From a virus, in the IMG/VR virus record IMGVR_UViG_3300032829_000004, positions 33,803 through 97,802 of that record: DNA of 64,000 nt; one strand, written 5' to 3'. Positions 2,330 through 42,291 of the stretch are shown piece by piece; position 1 is the first letter of the stretch; the number at the start of each line of letters is the position of its first letter. The notes beneath the pieces are model-generated. The model saw nothing but the letters and a program-made list of their open reading frames with translations, was not told the DNA's origin and made no database searches. A program made the position numbers and the translations under genes.

Positions 2330-3511
2330 GTGCCGGTGACCGTTCCCGCGCACGTGCAAGCGGAGTCGCATCACTACGTGATGCACTTCCCGCCCCACCC
2401 GGCCAGGGCCGACGACCCGCATTACGCCGACTTCGACCACTACCACCGCAAGACGCGGGCGACCGCACGGTGTTACATCGGTGAGCGGATCGGGTTCGGC
2501 GACTGCAAAGACGCGCAGTGCAAGCCGTGCCCGCCTCCTGAAGACGGCGGCGAGCAGCCGGGGCTCGAGCTGCACCATGCCCACGTCGAGTTCAGCCTCC
2601 AGAACGGCGTCGACCTTGCCGCACTCGAGAAGGACTACCCCGGCATCTCCGACCCGTCTCAGGTCGGGGCATGGGTCGAGTCGGAGGCGAACTTCCGGTG
2701 GCTCTGCGTCGCCGAGGGATCGCCCGTGCTGATGGCGGACGGCACGACGCGCCCGATCGAGTATGTGCTACCCGGCGAGCAGGTCATCGGCAGAGACGGA
2801 CTGCCTCACCTTGTCGAAGTAACCAGCCGGAAGAGGTATCGCGGCGAGCTCGTATCGTTCGGCTGCGCGTCGTTCACGCCTGAGCACCGCATTCTTAGTC
2901 ATCGAGGCTGGCTCTCTGCGGCCCATGTTTTCCGCCAGGTCTGGATGCATGGCCCGGACGTGATCGCGCTGCGATGCGAACAGAACCAGATTCGCTCTGG
3001 CGTTGTCGGCGCGGTTCCCGTTGAGGTGGTGAACGCGCTCTCGCGGCAGCAGCGGGCGCCCTATCCAGTCTTCCATGACCACGACGTGCTCCATGCGATG
3101 CCGGCTGCCGTCCCAGATGCGGATGTAGCCCTTCGCGGTGACCCAGGCCGTCCGGTTGCCGACGTTCCACTTCGGGAGCTTGTTCAGCTCCGTGAGGCGG
3201 CACTCGTTGGTGCAGTAGCGCCCGACGTTCGGGCGGGAGCGCCAGTGCGCCGGTCGGTGGAAGGTCTTCCCGCAGGAGGCGCAAGCCCAGAGATGGGATG
3301 GGTCACAGCGATGCCCAGCCGGACGGCCGCTTTTACCGGATGGGTTCACGACCTAAGTGTAGCGCATAGCCACTCTTTTGTTGTGGGCGGCATCGCGGCT
3401 CATAACTGTGCCTGGCATCACAGGGGGGCGGCCGGGGCGCATACGGCGTCGCATTCCGATTGGGAGGCGAGCCAGTACGTGCAGGGTCTGATTTCGCAGG
3501 CGGCGAAGTGA
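2330..3511 (+). CDS. HNH-like His/Cys-rich protein interrupted by an intein
   Basis: Extein LELHH...NFRWL|CAWHHRG; 125 aa + 234 aa intein + 34 aa. Confidence 0.8.
   Translation: MPVTVPAHVQAESHHYVMHFPPHPARADDPHYADFDHYHRKTRATARCYIGERIGFGDCKDAQCKPCPPPEDGGEQPGLELHHAHVEFSLQNGVDLAALEKDYPGISDPSQVGAWVESEANFRWLCVAEGSPVLMADGTTRPIEYVLPGEQVIGRDGLPHLVEVTSRKRYRGELVSFGCASFTPEHRILSHRGWLSAAHVFRQVWMHGPDVIALRCEQNQIRSGVVGAVPVEVVNALSRQQRAPYPVFHDHDVLHAMPAAVPDADVALRGDPGRPVADVPLRELVQLREAALVGAVAPDVRAGAPVRRSVEGLPAGGASPEMGWVTAMPSRTAAFTGWVHDLSVAHSHSFVVGGIAAHNCAWHHRGAAGAHTASHSDWEASQYVQGLISQAAK
2705..3406 (+). mobile_element. Intein (234 aa)
   Basis: Block A CVAEGSPVLMADG, block B TPEHRIL, block F VHDLSV..HSF, block G GIAAHN followed by Cys+1. 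Confidence 0.9.
2768..3349 (-). CDS. HNH homing endonuclease with N-terminal zinc finger, antisense within the intein
   Basis: CASCGKTF...YCTNEC; GYIRI...EHVVVME..IGRPL...ERVHHLNGNRADNARANLVLF...H. Confidence 0.85.
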   Translation of the reverse strand: MNPSGKSGRPAGHRCDPSHLWACASCGKTFHRPAHWRSRPNVGRYCTNECRLTELNKLPKWNVGNRTAWVTAKGYIRIWDGSRHRMEHVVVMEDWIGRPLLPRERVHHLNGNRADNARANLVLFASQRDHVRAMHPDLAENMGRREPASMTKNAVLRRERRAAERYELAAIPLPAGYFDKVRQSVSADDLLAG

Positions 3512-4266
3512 CCGGCATCCCCGTCCAGGGCCTGTCGCCGGCAAAGGCTGGAACGGGCGTGACCAGGTCGATTGTCGTTCACCAGGTCCGCGTCGCGGAT
3601 GAGGGCCGCTGGCAGTGGCGGGGTTCCCGCCTGACCTGGCAGCCTCCGCACCGGTACGGGTTCGAGGCGGAGTTCGACCCGTTCCCCGCCTACCCCCACG
3701 ATCCTGACGCGGCCCGCAAGGCGGCCGATCATGTCGCCGCGTGCTGCCCTCCGCTGTGGGACGTGAACCTGTACCTCGCCGACCGCGAGGAGACGTCCCG
3801 GTCCAACGGCCACTCCAACGTCCACGAAGGCGGCCGGTACGAAGGCTCCGAATGGGTGCAGGACGAGCCGTCCGGGATGATCCTGCTGTCCGCCAAACGG
3901 ATACCGCCGCACCCTGCGATGACCCGCCACCTGGTGGCCCACGAGTACGGGCACAACGTCGAGTACATGCTGAACTCGCTGCGCGGCGGCAGGCACGTGG
4001 CATCATGCGACGACCTCGAACGCGAGTACGCGGAAATGCGCGGCCTCCCGCCGTCGTCGGTCCACCACGGGGAAGGCGCGACCTGGCACGACTCCGCCTG
4101 CGAGATCATGGCGTGCGACTTCCGGATCGTCGTCTGCGGCACCGAGGCGGAGTTCTGGCCCCACCCCGGCATCCCACGGCCGGAAGAAGTACCCGCCGTA
4201 CGGCAGTGGTGGGTCGGCGCGACGGGACAGCTGGCGGATGGCCTGGCCGCGAAGCAGGCGGCATGA
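3508..4266 (+). CDS. Putative zinc metalloprotein (HExxH)
   Basis: LVAHEYGH plus downstream EIMA; GTGA overlap. Confidence 0.65.
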   Translation: MTGIPVQGLSPAKAGTGVTRSIVVHQVRVADEGRWQWRGSRLTWQPPHRYGFEAEFDPFPAYPHDPDAARKAADHVAACCPPLWDVNLYLADREETSRSNGHSNVHEGGRYEGSEWVQDEPSGMILLSAKRIPPHPAMTRHLVAHEYGHNVEYMLNSLRGGRHVASCDDLEREYAEMRGLPPSSVHHGEGATWHDSACEIMACDFRIVVCGTEAEFWPHPGIPRPEEVPAVRQWWVGATGQLADGLAAKQAA

Positions 4267-11693: not shown

Positions 11694-11749
11694 AGCCAGT
11701 CAAGTATAGAGTGGTTGCGGGTCCGCAATCATCCTAGACCGTAGTGGCT
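11694..11749. other. Putative attP site of the serine integrase
   Basis: Imperfect 27-bp inverted arms around a central GT at 11721-11722, adjacent to the integrase stop codon. Confidence 0.7.
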
Positions 11750-13344
11750 TTCCCTGCCTGCGGCATCGCGCCTTCCCACGGGTCCGGTTCCCATACCGGC
11801 AGCACCTCGATCCGGGCAGGCATGAGCTTCCACCAGCCCGCGCGGTCCCGTGACCGCTCGCCGGCCCGGTACACCGTGATCCGGCGCACCAGGCTCCGCA
11901 GGATCGCGTTCAGCTGCGCCGCCGGCAGCCGGTCCCAGTCGGCCGCCAGGGCGGGCAGCACCGGGATGAGGTCCGCGGACGGCTCCGCCGCCAGCGCCTC
12001 CCTGGCGGCTTCCAGGTCCGCCGCCGCCTGGTCCCGCTCCGCCCGCTTCACCGCCGCCGCCTGCTTCCACGTGTCGTCGCCGAGAACGTCCCCGCCGTCC
12101 CTGGCACGCTGAAGGGCAATGTTCACCAGCTGCCTGTCGTGCTCGGCCAGGGCCGCCTCGAGCCTGGCCACCGTGCCGGCCGAGTCGCGGCGCTCCGCCG
12201 ACCTGGCAAGGTCCCTGGCCGCCGCGTCCACGTCCGCCGCCCACGCCTCCACGGCCTCCCGGGCGGCGTCCGCGATCCGGGTCACCGACAAGGACGGCTT
12301 TCCCTCGCAGTCGTCGTACTGCCTGCCCCGAGAGCAGGAGTACAGGGTGGCGCCGCCGCTGGCGTACCCGGACGGCGTCATCGCCGACCGGCAGTGCCCG
12401 CACCTCACCAGGCCCGTCACCGGGTAGCGGGCGGCCCGCGCGCGGGGCGGCAGCTTGGCCGTCTCGGCGCGCCGCCGCCGGTACGCCTGCCATTCCGCCG
12501 GGGTGATCACCGGGTCGTGCGCCCCCTTGACGTAGGCGCGGCGCGGGCAGCGTGCCCTGCTGCCGCACTTGCACGCCGGGTCGTGCAGCAGCAGGAGTCC
12601 GGCGCCGAACCCGGAGTCGAGCACGTCCCTGACGGACTGCGCCCGCCACCTGCCCCCGTAGGAGGTCTGCCAGCCCGCCGCGTTGAGCCGTCCCGCGATC
12701 ACCCTGAACCCCTCGCCGGCGATGCTGGCACGGTAGGCGTCCGCCAGGGCGGGGCCTTCCGCGGTGCCCGGAACGTACCTCTCGGTTTCTCCTTTGACGC
12801 GGCGGGTGCGCTGCGGGTCGTCCTCGTCGCGGACGCGTCCTTCCCGCCGGTAGCCGAACCGGGGGCGGCCGAACGGGGGGAGTCCTTCCCGGACCCGCCA
12901 GCCGTAGGTTTCCGCCCAGATTTCCCCGGCCCGGTCGGATTCGTAGGCGGACACTTCCAGCAGGACGCCCCGCTGGAACTTGCCCGTCGCGGTCGTCGTG
13001 TCCACGTCCTCTGTCGCCGACACGAGCCGGCCGCCGGCTTCTTCCAGTTCGGCGAGGTAGACGTGGTTGCCGAGCCGCTGCCGGCCGAACCTGGAGAACT
13101 TCCAGACGATGACCGCCTGCGCCTCGCCGGACTTGACCCTGCCGATGGCGGACAGGATCTTCCTCTTGAACGTGCGGCCCGACACGTCCAGGTCCTCGAC
13201 CCAGTCGATGACCGCGTACCCGCAGCGGGCCGCGCACGCCTCGATCGCTGCCCGCTGCGTCTGCGGGGAGATCATCTCCTCGCGTTTCATCGACACCCGG
13301 ACGTACCCGATCGCGGGGACCGGGGGAGAGGCGTCAGGCGGCAT
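11734..13344 (-). CDS. Large serine recombinase (integrase)
   Basis: GYVRVS catalytic Ser, DLDVSG, KFSRFGR, recombinase domain, CGHC zinc ribbon, coiled coil. Confidence 0.92.
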   Translation of the reverse strand: MPPDASPPVPAIGYVRVSMKREEMISPQTQRAAIEACAARCGYAVIDWVEDLDVSGRTFKRKILSAIGRVKSGEAQAVIVWKFSRFGRQRLGNHVYLAELEEAGGRLVSATEDVDTTTATGKFQRGVLLEVSAYESDRAGEIWAETYGWRVREGLPPFGRPRFGYRREGRVRDEDDPQRTRRVKGETERYVPGTAEGPALADAYRASIAGEGFRVIAGRLNAAGWQTSYGGRWRAQSVRDVLDSGFGAGLLLLHDPACKCGSRARCPRRAYVKGAHDPVITPAEWQAYRRRRAETAKLPPRARAARYPVTGLVRCGHCRSAMTPSGYASGGATLYSCSRGRQYDDCEGKPSLSVTRIADAAREAVEAWAADVDAAARDLARSAERRDSAGTVARLEAALAEHDRQLVNIALQRARDGGDVLGDDTWKQAAAVKRAERDQAAADLEAAREALAAEPSADLIPVLPALAADWDRLPAAQLNAILRSLVRRITVYRAGERSRDRAGWWKLMPARIEVLPVWEPDPWEGAMPQAGKATTV

Positions 13345-33793: not shown

Positions 33794-33999
33794 GGGGCAC
33801 CCCCTCCCGACATGGGGGTCCAGTCACCGGGAAGGCCGAGCAGGCGTGCCGGCCGCCAGGGGCCGGGATTCACCTGGCAGACAACCGGGGGGAAGTCGAT
33901 GAGCGTGCCGTCAGGGGTGACGGTCACGCGGAAGAAGCCCAGTCGGGCCACGAGCGCGGCGAGCCGGGCGCACAGCAGCCTTGCCGCGCGGGCGATCAT
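33790..33999 (-). CDS. Small hypothetical protein
   Basis: Coupled at both ends. Confidence 0.45.
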   Translation of the reverse strand: MIARAARLLCARLAALVARLGFFRVTVTPDGTLIDFPPVVCQVNPGPWRPARLLGLPGDWTPMSGGGAP

Positions 34000-34574
34000 C
34001 CGCCGCCCCCGGCACCGGCGTAGCAGGCGTCCGTGAACGCCTCGTCGCGGGGCAGTGCCCGGAACGGCCACGAGGCGGCGAGCGCCGCCGGCCAGAACGT
34101 CATCCCGCCCGCGTGGAAAGGCTCACGGCGGGCGAACCGGCCCCGGCCGTGCCTCTCCGCCTGTCCGCCCCGGTACGCCTCGAAGGCGCGGGCGTCCAGG
34201 TCGATCACGTAACCCCACCTGGCCTGCGGATGGCGCGGCCAGTCGGCGGCGTCCGCGACCGCTCCCGCCTCCAGGATCAGGGCGGGATTCCCCATCGTGC
34301 CGCGCAGCAGCGCATACCAGCTCGCCGGGTCCCCGCCGCGCGGTTCGGCGTACCGGGCGAGTCGCACGGCGTCAGCCGGGTCCGGGCGGCTCTCCGGGTC
34401 GACCGTCCGCAGTGCCCGCGCCCGCGCCTCCACGATCCCGGCCTGGTTCACCGCCGCGTCACGAACCCAGCGGAGCACGGTCACGCCGAGATGCTCCGGG
34501 TAGGCGGCGGCGTGGACGTAGGAAGTCTTCTCCCGGCCGTCGATGACGAAGGCGATGAAGCCGCGCGTTCCCAT
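33996..34574 (-). CDS. Hypothetical phage protein
   Basis: MGTRGFIAF...YVH...YPEHLG...WGYVIDLD. Confidence 0.65.
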   Translation of the reverse strand: MGTRGFIAFVIDGREKTSYVHAAAYPEHLGVTVLRWVRDAAVNQAGIVEARARALRTVDPESRPDPADAVRLARYAEPRGGDPASWYALLRGTMGNPALILEAGAVADAADWPRHPQARWGYVIDLDARAFEAYRGGQAERHGRGRFARREPFHAGGMTFWPAALAASWPFRALPRDEAFTDACYAGAGGGG

Positions 34575-34578
34575 GCGG

Positions 34579-35136
34579 TCACTGACCTGCCTCGAGCCGG
34601 GCGAGCCGGGCGCGCAGCTCGGCGACTTCCTCGGCCGTCCGCTTGCGGTCCTCGGCCTGGCTGTCGGCGATCTCCCGGACGGTTTCCTCGAGCCGGGCCT
34701 GCTTGCCCTCGAACCGCTTGTTGAAGTCCATCTGGAGCACGAAGGCGTGACCGATGGTTTCCAGCGCGGCGCGGACCTGCGGCTCTACGCCGTTGAGGTC
34801 TACGTTGACGGCCTTGGAGTGGCCCCGTGCCAGCGACCGGCCGGCTTTCTTCTGGTGACGGCGGGCAAGCTCGATGTTCGTCCGGGCTTCCACGGGCCGG
34901 TAGCCTTCGCCGCGCACCACGTCGATCGCCCGCTTGTCCTTTTCCTCGTGTTCTTTGGCCGCGCGGATGACAGCCTGCCGGATGGCCATGCGGTGCTTCT
35001 CGGCGTCAAGCCCGAGCGCATCCGCTAGCTGCTGGTAGGTGATGACCGTCCCGGTCGGCGTCTTCCTGATCAGCTCGTAGACGGTCTTCCAGCGTGCTTT
35101 CGCGCCGACCGGCTCGAACGGCTGCCGTTCTCCCAT
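34579..35136 (-). CDS. Winged-helix-like plus coiled-coil protein directly after the pentamer array
   Basis: GAAAGGGA SD; GTVITYQQLADALG...VRGEGYR; C-terminal heptads. Confidence 0.7.
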   Translation of the reverse strand: MGERQPFEPVGAKARWKTVYELIRKTPTGTVITYQQLADALGLDAEKHRMAIRQAVIRAAKEHEEKDKRAIDVVRGEGYRPVEARTNIELARRHQKKAGRSLARGHSKAVNVDLNGVEPQVRAALETIGHAFVLQMDFNKRFEGKQARLEETVREIADSQAEDRKRTAEEVAELRARLARLEAGQ

Positions 35137-35161
35137 CGCGTTCCCTTTCCGTGTTGCTTCC

Positions 35162-35598
35162 CTGCCTAGCCACGCCTCGCCTTGCCGGGCCGTGCGTCGG
35201 CCCGCGATGCCAAGCCACGTTTGTCCAGCGCGGGCGTGCCGGGAGTCGAACCCGGCCGGAGACCATCCGCCCTGAAAAACCCCTGCCTTGCCCGGCCAGG
35301 ACTCGCCTAGCCGCGCCTCGCCGAGCCCCGCCGGACCCAGCCATGCGCGGGCGTCAGGGACTCGAACCCTGATGTCTGCCGGTCGCCCTTCCCTGCCTTG
35401 CCTGGCCTGGCCCAGCCATGCCGCGCCGCGCGCTGCCATGCCCTGCGGTGTCACGGTTCGTCCCGCGCGGGTGCCGGGGGCTTGAACCCCGGAGCCTGCC
35501 GGCCACCCTTTGAAACCCTTGCCGCGCCAGGCCTGGACAGGCCATGACTAGCCGCGCCCGGTCAGGCCGCGCCTTGCGTTGCCGTGCCAGGACAAGCT
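35162..35598 (-). ncRNA. Downstream GGC-NN pentamer array (4 tracts, 3 tRNA-like hairpins), putative guide RNAs
   Basis: Tracts of 16, 15, 13 and 14 pentamers; hairpins at 35469-35508, 35349-35388, 35232-35272. Confidence 0.8.
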
Positions 35599-36170
35599 CA
35601 GATCTTCTGGACCGTGGCCGTGAACCGGCCGTACCTCGGCCGCCAGTCCCCGATGCCGATGAGCTGCCCGGCCACTTCGGCGATCTGCCGCAGCTCGTCA
35701 AGGTCCATCACGTTCTCGTCGAGAATCCCGTCGGCGGCGGTCTTCCACGTGCGGAAGATCGGGCGGCACCGGGTGACCCGCTGCATGCCGACCTTCGCCG
35801 ATGAGAAGTGCCGGAAGTTCTCGTCGGCCCACAGCGCCTCGGCCTCGCGAGGGCCGGAGTAGGCGATCGGGTTGACGTTGGTGGCGATCAGCACGCCTTC
35901 CTTGACGCGCGGCCCTTTCTTGTGCTTCTTCGCCGCGTCGTACAGGCACCGCCAGATGTTGTCGGCAGGGATGTAGGGGCCGATCTCGGGGTCGTGGTAC
36001 AGGCCGCCGGTCCACTCGACGCGGGCCAGCTGCTCGTAGTCGTCATCGGTCTTGTTCCGCTTGCTGGTCAGCTTCTTGACGGCCTTCGCGGCCGGGTCCA
36101 GCGGGTTGGACAGGCGCGCGTTGTGCATGAGAAGCGCGTCCGTGCCGGTAAGAGTGATCCTGAAGTCCAC
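35598..36170 (-). CDS. Stand-alone RAMP/Cas7-like RNA-binding protein (Vipr-like), 190 aa
   Basis: AGGAG SD with GTG; N-terminal strand FRITLTGTDALLMH, PYIPADNIWRCL, RCRPIF..W, C-terminal Gly loop GIGDWRPRYGRF. Confidence 0.75.
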   Translation of the reverse strand: MDFRITLTGTDALLMHNARLSNPLDPAAKAVKKLTSKRNKTDDDYEQLARVEWTGGLYHDPEIGPYIPADNIWRCLYDAAKKHKKGPRVKEGVLIATNVNPIAYSGPREAEALWADENFRHFSSAKVGMQRVTRCRPIFRTWKTAADGILDENVMDLDELRQIAEVAGQLIGIGDWRPRYGRFTATVQKI

Positions 36171-36190
36171 TGTTCTCCTTTGAGTTGTCC

Positions 36191-36781
36191 TTGCCTTGCC
36201 TAGCCCCGCCACGCCCAGCGAAGCCGGGCCTAGCACAGCCATGCCATGTCTTGCGTGACCGCCGGGGGCTCGAACCCCAGTGCCTGCCAGTCGGCCGTAA
36301 AACTCCCTGCCTCGCCGCGCCCAGCCGAGCGCTGCCGGGACCAGCACTGCCGTGCCATGCCCAACCAGGCGCGGGTGCCAGGGTCTCGAACCCTGGTGAC
36401 TGCCGGTCACCCTTCATAAAGCCCCTGCCTCGCCTTGCCGCGCCTTGCCCGGACAGGCCTCGCGTTGCCGAGCCTCGCGGGGCCATGCCGCGCCTCGCCG
36501 CGCCATGCCTTGCCGCGCTCCGCCATGCCCAGCCGTGCCAAGCGCGGGTGCCCCGGACCCGAACCGGGGTGTATGCCGTTCACCCTGTGAAACCCCTGCC
36601 TCGCCAAGACCCGCCGTGCATCGCCTCGCCACGCCAGGCATTGCCCGGCCTTGCGTGCGGGCCGGGGGCCTGAACCCCGGTGCATGCCGTTCCCGCGTGA
36701 ATCCCTTGCCCTGCCTAGCCCGGCCCCGCGTTGCCACGCCTAGCCGTAGCCAAGACACGCCCCGCCCCGCCTAGCCATGCG
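36191..36781 (-). ncRNA. Upstream GGC-NN pentamer array (5 tracts, 4 tRNA-like hairpins), putative guide RNAs
   Basis: Tracts of 15, 12, 24, 13 and 13 pentamers; hairpins at 36657-36696, 36546-36585, 36373-36412, 36257-36296. Confidence 0.8.
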
Positions 36782-36787
36782 CGTCCG

Positions 36788-36873
36788 ATGATGCCACAAC
36801 ACTGTGGCATGGTCAATCCGGCCATAATGTTGTGGCATGATGCTACACTGGTGTTGGCCACATGCGTGTGGCA
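36788..36873. promoter_or_regulatory. Divergent promoter region with three GCCAYA-N4-TGTGGC operators
   Basis: Minus strand TTGACC-17-CATCAT ending just before the first pentamer; palindromes at about 36791, 36821 and 36857. Confidence 0.7.
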
Positions 36874-36883
36874 ACATGACCGC

Positions 36884-37141
36884 GTGGACCCGGAGCCGGA
36901 GATGACCGAACTGCTTGACGCCGTTGCCGACGTGCGCGCCCAGTCGCAGCGCGTCGCCCGGCTCGCCGCCGCCCTCTACGAGGCCAGCAAGACGCACAAG
37001 CAGAACGAACTGGTCCGCAAGACCGGCCTCACCCGCGAGACGATCCGGCGGCACGTCGAGGACGAGAAGATCCGGCGCGGCGAGATCGCCCCCACGGCGC
37101 GGTACCTGGCAGCCCAGAAGCGGGCGCGCGGCGACTCCTGA
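36884..37141 (+). CDS. Small HTH regulator divergent from the array operon
   Basis: QNELVRKTGLTRETIRRHV. Confidence 0.7.
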   Translation: MDPEPEMTELLDAVADVRAQSQRVARLAAALYEASKTHKQNELVRKTGLTRETIRRHVEDEKIRRGEIAPTARYLAAQKRARGDS

Positions 37142-37143
37142 CC

Positions 37144-37290
37144 TCACCGCTTCAGCACCCTTCCCGCCCGCTGGACTGCCCGCTTTACCGCCCACCCGGC
37201 CGTAACCCACAGCAGTCCGAGTACCGCGAGCAGTGGCCACCACCCGGCGAGCGCTATTCGTGCCGCCCACGATGCGGCTTCACCGTTCAC
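37144..37290 (-). CDS. Small membrane protein
   Basis: Single TM, GTGA overlap. Confidence 0.45.
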   Translation of the reverse strand: MNGEAASWAARIALAGWWPLLAVLGLLWVTAGWAVKRAVQRAGRVLKR

Positions 37291-37550
37291 CGGAGCCTCT
37301 TCTCCCGCCGCGCCGTCTTCCCACCGCGACCCGGCATGGGGGCCTTGCCGTCGAGGAACGCCTTCTCGCGCCTCGACCACGACACCGGGCCGCGGGGCAG
37401 CAGTTCCCTCGCCGAGCAGCCGATCAGGATCGCCGCGGCAAGCCCGTATGCGGTCATCGGACCCCACAAGCCGAGCAGGCCGAGGCAGACGGCCAGGAAC
37501 GCGGACGCGGCGCCGGCAAGGCAGAGGGCGGCGGGGATGAGACGGGTCAC
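37287..37550 (-). CDS. Two-TM membrane protein
   Basis: Two hydrophobic helices and basic tail. Confidence 0.55.
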   Translation of the reverse strand: MTRLIPAALCLAGAASAFLAVCLGLLGLWGPMTAYGLAAAILIGCSARELLPRGPVSWSRREKAFLDGKAPMPGRGGKTARREKRLR

Positions 37551-41671: not shown

Positions 41672-42291
41672 GCCGCCACTCCAGCCGGGGGCTCGAACGA
41701 ATAGGAACCGTCTTCCGAACGCCACGCCAGGACCCCGGACCCGTGCCGGGAATGCAGCATCATCGGCACTGCGCGCGGGTCGGAGCCCTGCGGGAGCCAG
41801 AAGCCGCGTGCCCGCATCTCCGCGTTCCGCGACTCGGCCGCCCCGTGGCAGCCGTCGTGCGGCGTGCCGCACAGAAGCGCCCCGTTCGCGGCCGTCGCGA
41901 GGACCGGATTCGACGTGCCGCCCATGCCGCGCGCCACGACATGCTGCACCTGGCCGCCGTAACGGCCGAGGTGCTTCCCGCATGCTTCGCATGCCGCGTC
42001 CTCGACGGCCCCGTTGCCGGCCCTCTTGCGGACCAGCAGCTTCACCCTCGCGGGGAACCCTGTCACCGGGCGGGGTGCCGGAACCGGCACCGGCCGGGGT
42101 GCCTGCGGGACGCGGACATGCCACTTCCCGCACTCCCGGTTCAGGCACTGGCGCACCTCGGCACCAGGCAGCCCCGCGTTCGGCGATTCTCCGGCGGCTT
42201 CCTCCGACTCGTACCCTTTCCCGCACGGCAGGAGAGGGGCACGGCGGGACAGGCCGGAGGCAGCCGCCAGGGGCTGCCTCCGGGAAGGCAT
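41668..42291 (-). CDS. HNH endonuclease-like protein
   Basis: CEACG...QH...RGMGG...N..LLCG....GCH. Confidence 0.7.
   Translation of the reverse strand: MPSRRQPLAAASGLSRRAPLLPCGKGYESEEAAGESPNAGLPGAEVRQCLNRECGKWHVRVPQAPRPVPVPAPRPVTGFPARVKLLVRKRAGNGAVEDAACEACGKHLGRYGGQVQHVVARGMGGTSNPVLATAANGALLCGTPHDGCHGAAESRNAEMRARGFWLPQGSDPRAVPMMLHSRHGSGVLAWRSEDGSYSFEPPAGVAA

Follow-up and report, generated by a model that had tools for sequence, protein, structure and literature searches.

A probable VIPR locus with tRNA-like tail modules between its guide tracts in a high-GC actinobacterial phage

Results

Repeat tracts and the Vipr protein

The minus strand of a complete, temperate, high-GC actinobacterial phage (IMG/VR virus record IMGVR_UViG_3300032829_000004) carries nine tracts with strict 5-nt periodicity, which lie between positions 35162 and 36781 of the 64,000-nucleotide stretch analysed here ("the window", record positions 33,803 to 97,802) and flank a gene of 190 aa (35598-36170; Table 1). 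By sequence and by analogy with characterised relatives, this locus is very probably a member of the Viral Interference Programmable Repeat (VIPR) family, type II-like, in which RNA-guided silencing of DNA would be expected. The minus strand of 34300-37400 was read, all five phases of both strands were scanned for 5-nt periodicity, and the boundaries of the tracts, here called vr1 to vr9, were then refined. The nine tracts and the gene between them were found where the first-pass annotation, a reading of the DNA made from the letters alone, had placed them.

Among the 128 in-frame pentamers, positions 1-3 read GGC in 93, CGC in 16, GTC in 8, TGC in 4, AGC in 2, GGT in 2, GAC in 2 and GCC in 1, with GGY accounting for 74%. 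Position 3 was a pyrimidine (C/T) in 128/128 pentamers, as the first-pass annotation had stated, and positions 4-5 (NN) varied freely; its total of ~135 pentamers was slightly high, the count being about 128-131. Its description of the tract ends also held, CGC opening 7/9 tracts and GGC-AA or GGC-AG followed by GG closing 9/9. GGC was followed by GGC at +5 62 times in the 1047 non-coding bases, compared to 2.3 times per kb genome-wide, and no comparable run of more than 8 repeats occurred elsewhere in the window under an equally loose definition.

VIPR was described in three bioRxiv preprints of 2026 (10.64898/2026.04.26.720920, 10.64898/2026.04.26.720927 and 10.64898/2026.10.15.759431) as consisting of a RAMP protein, Vipr, an accessory protein, Vap, and vrRNAs made of 9-16 GGY/NN repeats with a conserved 3′ tail. 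According to the same three preprints, each NN dinucleotide pairs with double-stranded DNA (dsDNA) and the next base of the target is skipped, competing phages and satellites are transcriptionally silenced, and seven types are told apart on the basis of the Vipr tree, the layout of the arrays and the vap genes. The discovery paper lists 667 systems (10.64898/2026.04.26.720920). In Escherichia phage SUSP1, VIPR serves as a defence against a satellite, with guides that follow codon periodicity, which blocks synonymous escape (VIPR preprints).

A phmmer search of the PDB with the 190-aa protein returned one match, 36pp_D, 'SUSP1 Vipr protein', over residues 4-187, and the PHROGs match was to phrog_4652 (E values in Table 1). 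Pfam gave only a chance-level match, and neither Cas7 nor any other Cas family was detected by it. In SUSP1 Vipr, H17 and D177 read G1, R138 and W178 read G2, R179 reads Y3, and K33 sits on the target backbone (10.64898/2026.04.26.720927). All six residues have identical counterparts in our alignment (SUSP1 H17, K33, R138, D177, W178 and R179 correspond to H16, K32, R136, D175, W176 and R177). The AlphaFold2 model, built from a 71-sequence alignment, had a mean predicted local distance difference test score (pLDDT) of 96.9, and its top Foldseek matches in the PDB were all Csm3/Cas7-type RAMPs of types III, III-D and VII (probability 1.00, E ~1e-5, template modelling (TM) score 0.45-0.54, identity 10-15%), in agreement with the RAMP/Cas7-like fold proposed in the first pass. 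The accompanying proposal that one protomer binds each GGY needs amendment, since two adjacent protomers jointly hold each GGY in the cryo-EM preprint.

The Vipr family is very large, with 702 matches in a word-indexed search and, when sequences were clustered at 50% identity, 2,592 clusters (E up to 0.001). Identity was 57% to the protein of MakoManhole, 51% to LittleE, 48% to Trine and 44% to prophiBWHA-1 among isolated phages, 37% to SUSP1-clade Vipr and 40% to Pseudomonas phage Vipr. GGY/NN tracts were present on the vipr strand in 19/19 fetched homolog loci, comprising phages, IMG/VR contigs and genomes, which bears out the predicted co-occurrence of the gene with 5-nt periodic arrays. 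The NN strings of these relatives were unrelated to the present ones, the best overlap being 67% over 9 repeats. The 24-repeat vr3 exceeds the 9-16 repeats reported for the clades of SUSP1 and of the Pseudomonas fulva prophage; relatives also hold long tracts of 17-28 repeats, those of 20-28 repeats including fetched loci L010:3656-3795, L008:2384-2483 and L011:2352-2456.

Two tracts, vr5 and vr9, lie in the 5′ leaders of genes of the locus. The end of vr5 is 20 nt before the vipr GTG and just upstream of an AGGAG ribosome-binding site, and that of vr9 is 25 nt before the ATG of the downstream vap gene. Both are tail-less, and 8/19 homolog loci likewise had a tract whose end lay 17-44 nt ahead of the start of vipr. 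Together with vr6 at the vipr stop codon, this arrangement suggests that binding of Vipr to its own transcripts may matter.

Table 1 Guide tracts, tails, genes and predicted regulatory sites at the locus, in transcriptional order of the minus strand, followed by other genes of the window (window positions)
Feature	Position	Strand	Remarks
Divergent 79-aa gene	36902-37141	+	Pfam HTH_11 and HTH_26 matches, E 0.0015-0.0045, below cut-offs
Operator-like palindrome GCCACA-N4-TGTGGC, three copies	36793-36875	.	One copy between the -35 and -10 hexamers
Predicted sigma-70-like promoter	36788-36816	-	TTGACC, 17 nt, TG-CATCAT; ends ~7 nt before the first tract
vrRNA 1 tract	36706-36781	-	15 pentamers (7+8), one extra base after repeat 7
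Tail 1, tRNA-like minihelix	36656-36705	-	Acceptor-like stem GCGGG/CCCGC and T-arm
vrRNA 2 tract	36596-36655	-	12 pentamers
Tail 2, tRNA-like minihelix	36545-36595	-	
vrRNA 3 tract	36425-36544	-	24 pentamers
Tail 3, tRNA-like minihelix	36372-36424	-	
vrRNA 4 tract	36307-36371	-	13 pentamers; predicted natural target in XRE-HTH/Peptidase_M78 genes
Tail 4, tRNA-like minihelix	36256-36306	-	Stem GGCCG/CGGTC
vrRNA 5 tract	36191-36255	-	13 pentamers; tail-less
vipr, 190-aa minimal RAMP	35598-36170	-	phrog_4652, E 1.8e-57; PDB 36pp_D, E 1.3e-34
vrRNA 6 tract	35519-35598	-	16 pentamers; first base shared with the end of the vipr stop codon
Tail 6, tRNA-like minihelix	35468-35518	-	
vrRNA 7	35393-35467	-	Degenerate 5′ repeats, then 11-12 clean pentamers (clean part 35393-35447)
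Tail 7, tRNA-like minihelix	35348-35392	-	
vrRNA 8 tract	35283-35347	-	13 pentamers
Tail 8, tRNA-like minihelix	35231-35282	-	Weak, non-significant Rfam tmRNA match
vrRNA 9	35162-35230	-	Degenerate 5′ part, then 11 pentamers (35162-35216); tail-less
vap, Vap1-like accessory gene, 185 aa	34579-35136	-	N-terminal winged helix, long C-terminal helix (model)
192-aa gene	33996-34574	-	phrog_30528, function not annotated; starts 5 nt past the vap stop codon
Large serine integrase	11737-13344	-	phrog_95, E 9e-78

Tail modules

A module of 45-53 nt follows 7/9 tracts, vr5 and vr9 being the two without it. The first pass had described 40-nt hairpins separating the tracts; the separators are longer than that, contain two helices resembling part of a tRNA, and are confined to these seven positions. 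We aligned 22 tails from seven phages (the present phage, MakoManhole, LittleE, Trine, prophiBWHA-1 and two IMG/VR relatives). The aligned tails share a 5-bp acceptor-like stem, a linker of ~12 nt with an invariant G, and a T-arm composed of a 5-bp stem with an invariant closing G-C pair and a TTCRANY loop. In this alignment 99.1% of the cells pair, with compensatory changes in 9/10 pairs; 0/500 shuffles reached the observed value and slid controls gave at most 58%. RNAalifold independently yielded the same helices. The 3′ strand of the acceptor-like stem stops one base short of the CGC that opens the next tract (...CCCG / CGCNN).

T-arm tails were found in 8/19 homolog loci, other relatives having plain hairpins, and the tails of the SUSP1 clade are AT-rich and lack a T-loop. 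The published tail analysis covers five SUSP1-clade tails only (VIPR preprints), and the word 'tRNA' is absent from the main text of the three preprints; their supplements might show such tails. The modules were also considered as tRNA or tmRNA genes, and this was rejected: ARAGORN called 0 genes in the window, the modules have no D or anticodon arms, and Rfam at E up to 1 returned only beta_tmRNA at 14.8 bits, compared to a gathering score of 84. In a reading of our own that goes beyond the text of the preprints, the tails would probably serve to punctuate processing between guides and to cap their 3′ ends.

Similar modules turned up in two other settings. In Mycobacterium phage Send513 (record ~41814-41865; also in Rope, Zenon and Nilo), tail 7 has a 90%-identical counterpart of 52 nt, which forms the same minihelix. 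It stands alone right after gp53, with no preceding GGY/NN tract and no Vipr match in the record, and the tRNA-like module thus exists outside VIPR arrays in actinophages. In Gordonia phage Trine, gp40 ('hypothetical protein', 3091-3894 of the fetched locus, directly behind the Vipr homolog) overlaps a 13-repeat tract and three T-arm tails (3102, 3223 and 3332), so that the annotated gene is in all probability a mistaken call on a vrRNA array.

Guide targets

For all target scans the guides were converted to the form NN-x-NN-x, following the published rule of a 1-nt skip. The NN bases had a G+C content (GC) of 0.45 compared to 0.71 for the genome, and the GC of vipr codon positions 1/2/3 was 0.62/0.44/0.94; the low value of NN is as expected if NN reads codon positions 1-2.

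The ten central repeats of vr4, which specify 20 bases, had 46 exact matches in IMG/VR viral contigs. In 46/46 the guide was antisense to the coding strand on codons A-H-E-L-G-H-L-V-M/I-H, which contain the zinc-binding HExxH motif, and every skipped base was a wobble position, so that synonymous changes could not give escape from vr4. The site lies ~200 residues into proteins of ~365 aa with Pfam helix-turn-helix (HTH) domain HTH_3 and Peptidase_M78 (ImmA/IrrE type), and related proteins in named phages are annotated as cI-like repressor, ImmA/IrrE metallo-endopeptidase or XRE regulator. Over all 13 repeats, 20-24 of 26 bases were matched, with at least 80% in 34/46 sites. When decoded, the closest relative's syntenic guide reads R-F-[D/E]-[I/M]-A-H-E-[I/M]-G-H-[I/M] and is the sole one to spell HExxH among the relatives' 42 guides; it lands three codons upstream in the same genes with 22/28 bases matched, the shuffled maximum being 21. 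The phage itself encodes no Peptidase_M78 domain. On sequence grounds, the vr4 match clearly shows which motif is read, not which rival element is fought.

Exact scans of IMG/VR gave zero matches for vr2 (11 repeats), vr3 (14), vr5 (10), vr6 (13), vr7 (10) and vr8 (11), and exact scans of JGI metagenomes with the cores of vr6 and vr8 likewise gave zero. When the other guides were placed on the 46 vr4-target loci, no convergence was seen. No self-target reached 80% or exceeded shuffled guides, and the same was true when the present guides were compared with the relatives' VIPR loci and the relatives' guides with the phage.

Promoter, accessory gene and transcription unit

The predicted promoter listed in Table 1 is the sole promoter-like site in 34300-37400, shuffles averaging 0.1. 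From it, five co-oriented guide tracts, vipr, four more guide tracts and vap follow in this order, and no terminator-like site was found on the array strand within the array, which makes a single precursor plausible. At 0-1 mismatch, all three copies of GCCACA-N4-TGTGGC in the window adjoin this promoter. From its position, the divergent 79-aa gene is a candidate local regulator of the promoter, and the palindromes combined with this weakly HTH-like gene look like a dedicated repressor/operator switch of the VIPR operon.

The first-pass annotation had taken vipr for a lone gene; a Vap1-like accessory gene follows it. The 185-aa Vap protein aligns with the products of the genes that follow vipr in six compared loci, including those of MakoManhole (Gordonia), LittleE and prophiBWHA-1 (Mycobacterium), LESphi2 (Pseudomonas) and the SUSP1-clade phage bumzen, which have a G-x-G-Y-R-x-V-E block in common with it. 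Pairwise BLASTP against the bumzen protein gave E 7e-5, and Pfam matched DNA_binding_1 at E 3.5e-5, below the cut-off. The AlphaFold2 model (pLDDT 87.4) predicts a winged helix at the N terminus, and by sequence and model the gene fits Vap1 of type II VIPR. The 192-aa gene immediately beyond vap is probably co-transcribed with it, given the 5-nt spacing. An identical Vap protein is recorded on a 97,816-bp contig, 14 bases longer than the present record; presumably this is a second assembly of the phage from a different collection.

Genomic context

The source record is 97,802 bp long with direct terminal repeats, an estimated completeness of 100% and a GC of 0.71. The phage encodes a tail protein, a RecE-like exonuclease, an FtsK-like protein and a large serine integrase, the last of which indicates a temperate phage. 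The absence of cas1 and of a CRISPR array, noted by the first pass for the window, extends to the whole 97.8-kb phage, in which neither Cas1 nor a CRISPR-like repeat array was found anywhere, and no other cas genes adjoin the vipr locus. The nearest named cellular Vipr homologs are in a Streptantibioticus metagenome-assembled genome (75%) and Planomonospora venezuelensis (66%); the host is guessed solely from these sequence matches.

Discussion

The locus contains each feature of VIPR that can be examined in sequence: Vipr with its contact residues, tracts of 11-24 GGY/NN repeats compared to the defining minimum of 4 tandem YNNGG units, structured tails, a vap gene, absence of CRISPR and Cas1, and a viral context. 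The first pass had likened the pentamers to phage VIPR systems, and this comparison proved apt in view of the homology to SUSP1 Vipr, the contact residues, the Vap1-like partner, the arrays and the vr4 target. The system is therefore one already described and not a new kind.

The closest published counterpart is the type II VIPR of phage SUSP1 and the P. fulva prophage (10.64898/2026.04.26.720920). The two share a homologous Vipr that contacts GGY and target through the same residues, a Vap1-like winged-helix gene that is likewise homologous and lies downstream, carriage by a phage, absence of self-targets, tracts with conserved 3′ tails on both sides of the genes, and a guide that would read codon positions 1-2 of a rival's regulator. 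They differ in that Vipr is only 37-40% identical, that nine guides are present instead of three or four, and that one tract has 24 repeats compared to 9-16. The present tail is a GC-rich tRNA-like minihelix, whereas that of the SUSP1 clade is an AT-rich pseudoknot. Two tail-less tracts at start codons, four guides between vipr and vap, and a divergent small HTH gene with three operators at the promoter further distinguish the present locus.

The relation to CRISPR-Cas is more distant. Like the Cas7/Csm3 proteins (PDB 9g9e_D, 7uzw_B, 6ifl_F and 5yjd_A), Vipr has an RRM core, a glycine-rich loop and a thumb, and would polymerise on its guide RNA at a fixed step, flipping out bases periodically. 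However, each step would span 5 nt and displace three guide bases, as opposed to 6 nt and one. In contrast to class 1 CRISPR-Cas systems, the locus lacks a CRISPR array, Cas1/2, Cas6 and a large subunit, and the guides are hard-coded, not acquired.

By analogy with the SUSP1 and P. fulva systems, the locus may work as follows. One promoter would drive a single precursor of guides, vipr and vap. Vipr protomers would polymerise along each GGY/NN tract, flip out GGY and present NN, and the NN bases would pair with dsDNA in the register NN-x-NN-x, with one base skipped. The resulting R-loop or triplex would block transcription, an effect that the Vap1-like winged-helix protein may enhance. In this scheme vr4 would silence the lysogeny-switch regulator (XRE-HTH/Peptidase_M78, at its HExxH site) of a rival temperate element. 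The tails, each ending where the next guide begins, would act as processing punctuation and 3′ caps, and Vipr bound to the tail-less tracts ahead of vipr and vap could exert feedback on translation.

Several observations weigh against this interpretation. The mechanism is carried over by analogy from systems whose Vipr is only 37-40% identical. The type II assignment, which is the one that the sequence most resembles, comes from homology to Vap1 (pairwise E 7e-5) and from the similarity of Vipr, as opposed to the authors' phylogeny, and Foldseek matches of the Vap model were weak (E at least 0.011), although almost all were winged helix-turn-helix regulators. Folding of single tails was no better than that of shuffles (z -0.3 to -1.2), so that the claim of tail structure derives entirely from covariation. 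A target was predicted for one of the nine guides, vr4, and for none of the eight others. Allowing up to 3 mismatches, vr6 was absent from 301 Streptomycetaceae genomes and full-length vr4 had no site in 101 sampled Streptomycetaceae genomes, a strict filter that 3/46 of the IMG/VR sites would pass. The GC of the vr4-target contigs spans 0.38-0.70, and most of them therefore cannot share the phage's host. Finally, the consistently antisense orientation of vr4 to the mRNA is compatible with RNA targeting by this guide.

This last point leads to an alternative in which the locus is VIPR-like but acts on RNA, gapped pairing with rival mRNAs affecting their translation or stability and not their transcription. 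It draws on the 46/46 antisense sites of vr4 and on the fact that the closest structural relatives, Csm3/Cas7 of types III and VII, target RNA. Nevertheless, the published homologs bind dsDNA in an R-loop triplex and act as silencers whichever strand is targeted (VIPR preprints), the lysine that contacts the target backbone (K33 in SUSP1) is retained as K32, and a strand bias cannot be set by one guide. We regard an RNA-acting system as very unlikely. A separate doubt concerns the vr4 match itself, which could be a coincidence multiplied by the abundance of the motif, the true target of vr4 lying elsewhere. The wide GC range of the target contigs, mostly foreign to the phage's host, the empty scan of the 101 Streptomycetaceae genomes (13 repeats, up to 3 mismatches) and the failure of other guides to converge would fit such a coincidence. 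Yet the 20 specified bases match exactly and in frame with all skips at wobble positions, nine other guide-pattern scans of equal or greater length gave zero matches, and a guide at the syntenic position in the nearest relative spells out this motif region independently, all of which makes chance an improbable source of the match.

Two further explanations would deny the locus a VIPR function altogether. GGC-rich simple repeats are abundant in high-GC genomes, and the tracts might be non-functional pentanucleotide microsatellites produced by slippage next to an unrelated gene. Slippage, however, does not conserve positions 1-3 while positions 4-5 vary, and it would leave unexplained arrays accompanying a homologous gene in 19/19 loci of very different phages with unrelated NN strings, as well as an NN string that decodes to a conserved catalytic motif matching 46 contigs; this explanation is effectively refuted already. 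A degenerate or miniature type III/IV-like CRISPR-Cas remnant, in which the 45-53-nt modules would be the repeats and the tracts the spacers, would account for the alternation of conserved and variable segments and for Cas7/Csm3 being the best structural match. It is hardly credible in a phage that has no Cas1 or CRISPR-type repeat in its entire genome and no cas gene beside the locus, with variable segments of strict 5-nt periodicity and a protein that groups by sequence with SUSP1 Vipr and has no Pfam Cas7 family. A VIPR system acting on DNA thus accounts best for the locus.

Within the VIPR reading, the tails can be compared with two kinds of structured spacer. The hammerhead-ribozyme arrays of type I and V VIPR (10.64898/2026.04.26.720920) also place a structured module between guides that could define guide ends; those ribozymes cleave themselves, whereas the present module has no ribozyme signature, and any cutting would need host enzymes.

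Processing punctuation by tRNA-like elements is known from mitochondrial tRNA punctuation, the mascRNA of MALAT1, the tRNA-like domain of tmRNA and engineered tRNA-gRNA arrays. The tails resemble these in having an acceptor-like stem stacked on a T-arm and a GG-containing linker, and in standing between functional RNAs of one precursor. They are unlike tRNAs in lacking D and anticodon arms, and the SUSP1 tail is retained by the mature guide. We offer only as a tentative proposal, one that we consider possible but less probable than its opposite, that the minihelix tails of this actinophage clade recruit host RNase P and/or RNase Z to cut the guide precursor and that, through the leader tracts, Vipr filaments limit the translation of the system's own genes.

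VIPR has been known only since 2026, its characterised examples being from Escherichia and Pseudomonas phages, and the present locus belongs to a high-GC actinomycete phage. It leaves the category unchanged and will be of use mainly to VIPR specialists. What it offers beyond the text of the preprints is the tRNA-like tails, the guide tracts in the leaders of the system's own genes and the decoded vr4 target. The predicted site at the HExxH motif of M78 proteins illustrates the principle of reading codon positions 1-2 and skipping the wobble base, here directed against a motif fixed by function. The tRNA-like tail suggests that guide arrays are processed by host enzymes, and the same type of tail occurs in isolated, culturable phages (MakoManhole and Trine of Gordonia and LittleE of Mycobacterium), so that the idea can be examined at the bench. 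If true, the arrays would be a natural counterpart of the engineered tRNA-gRNA arrays, and if the leader tracts act as proposed, the supply of Vipr would be coupled to the guide load.

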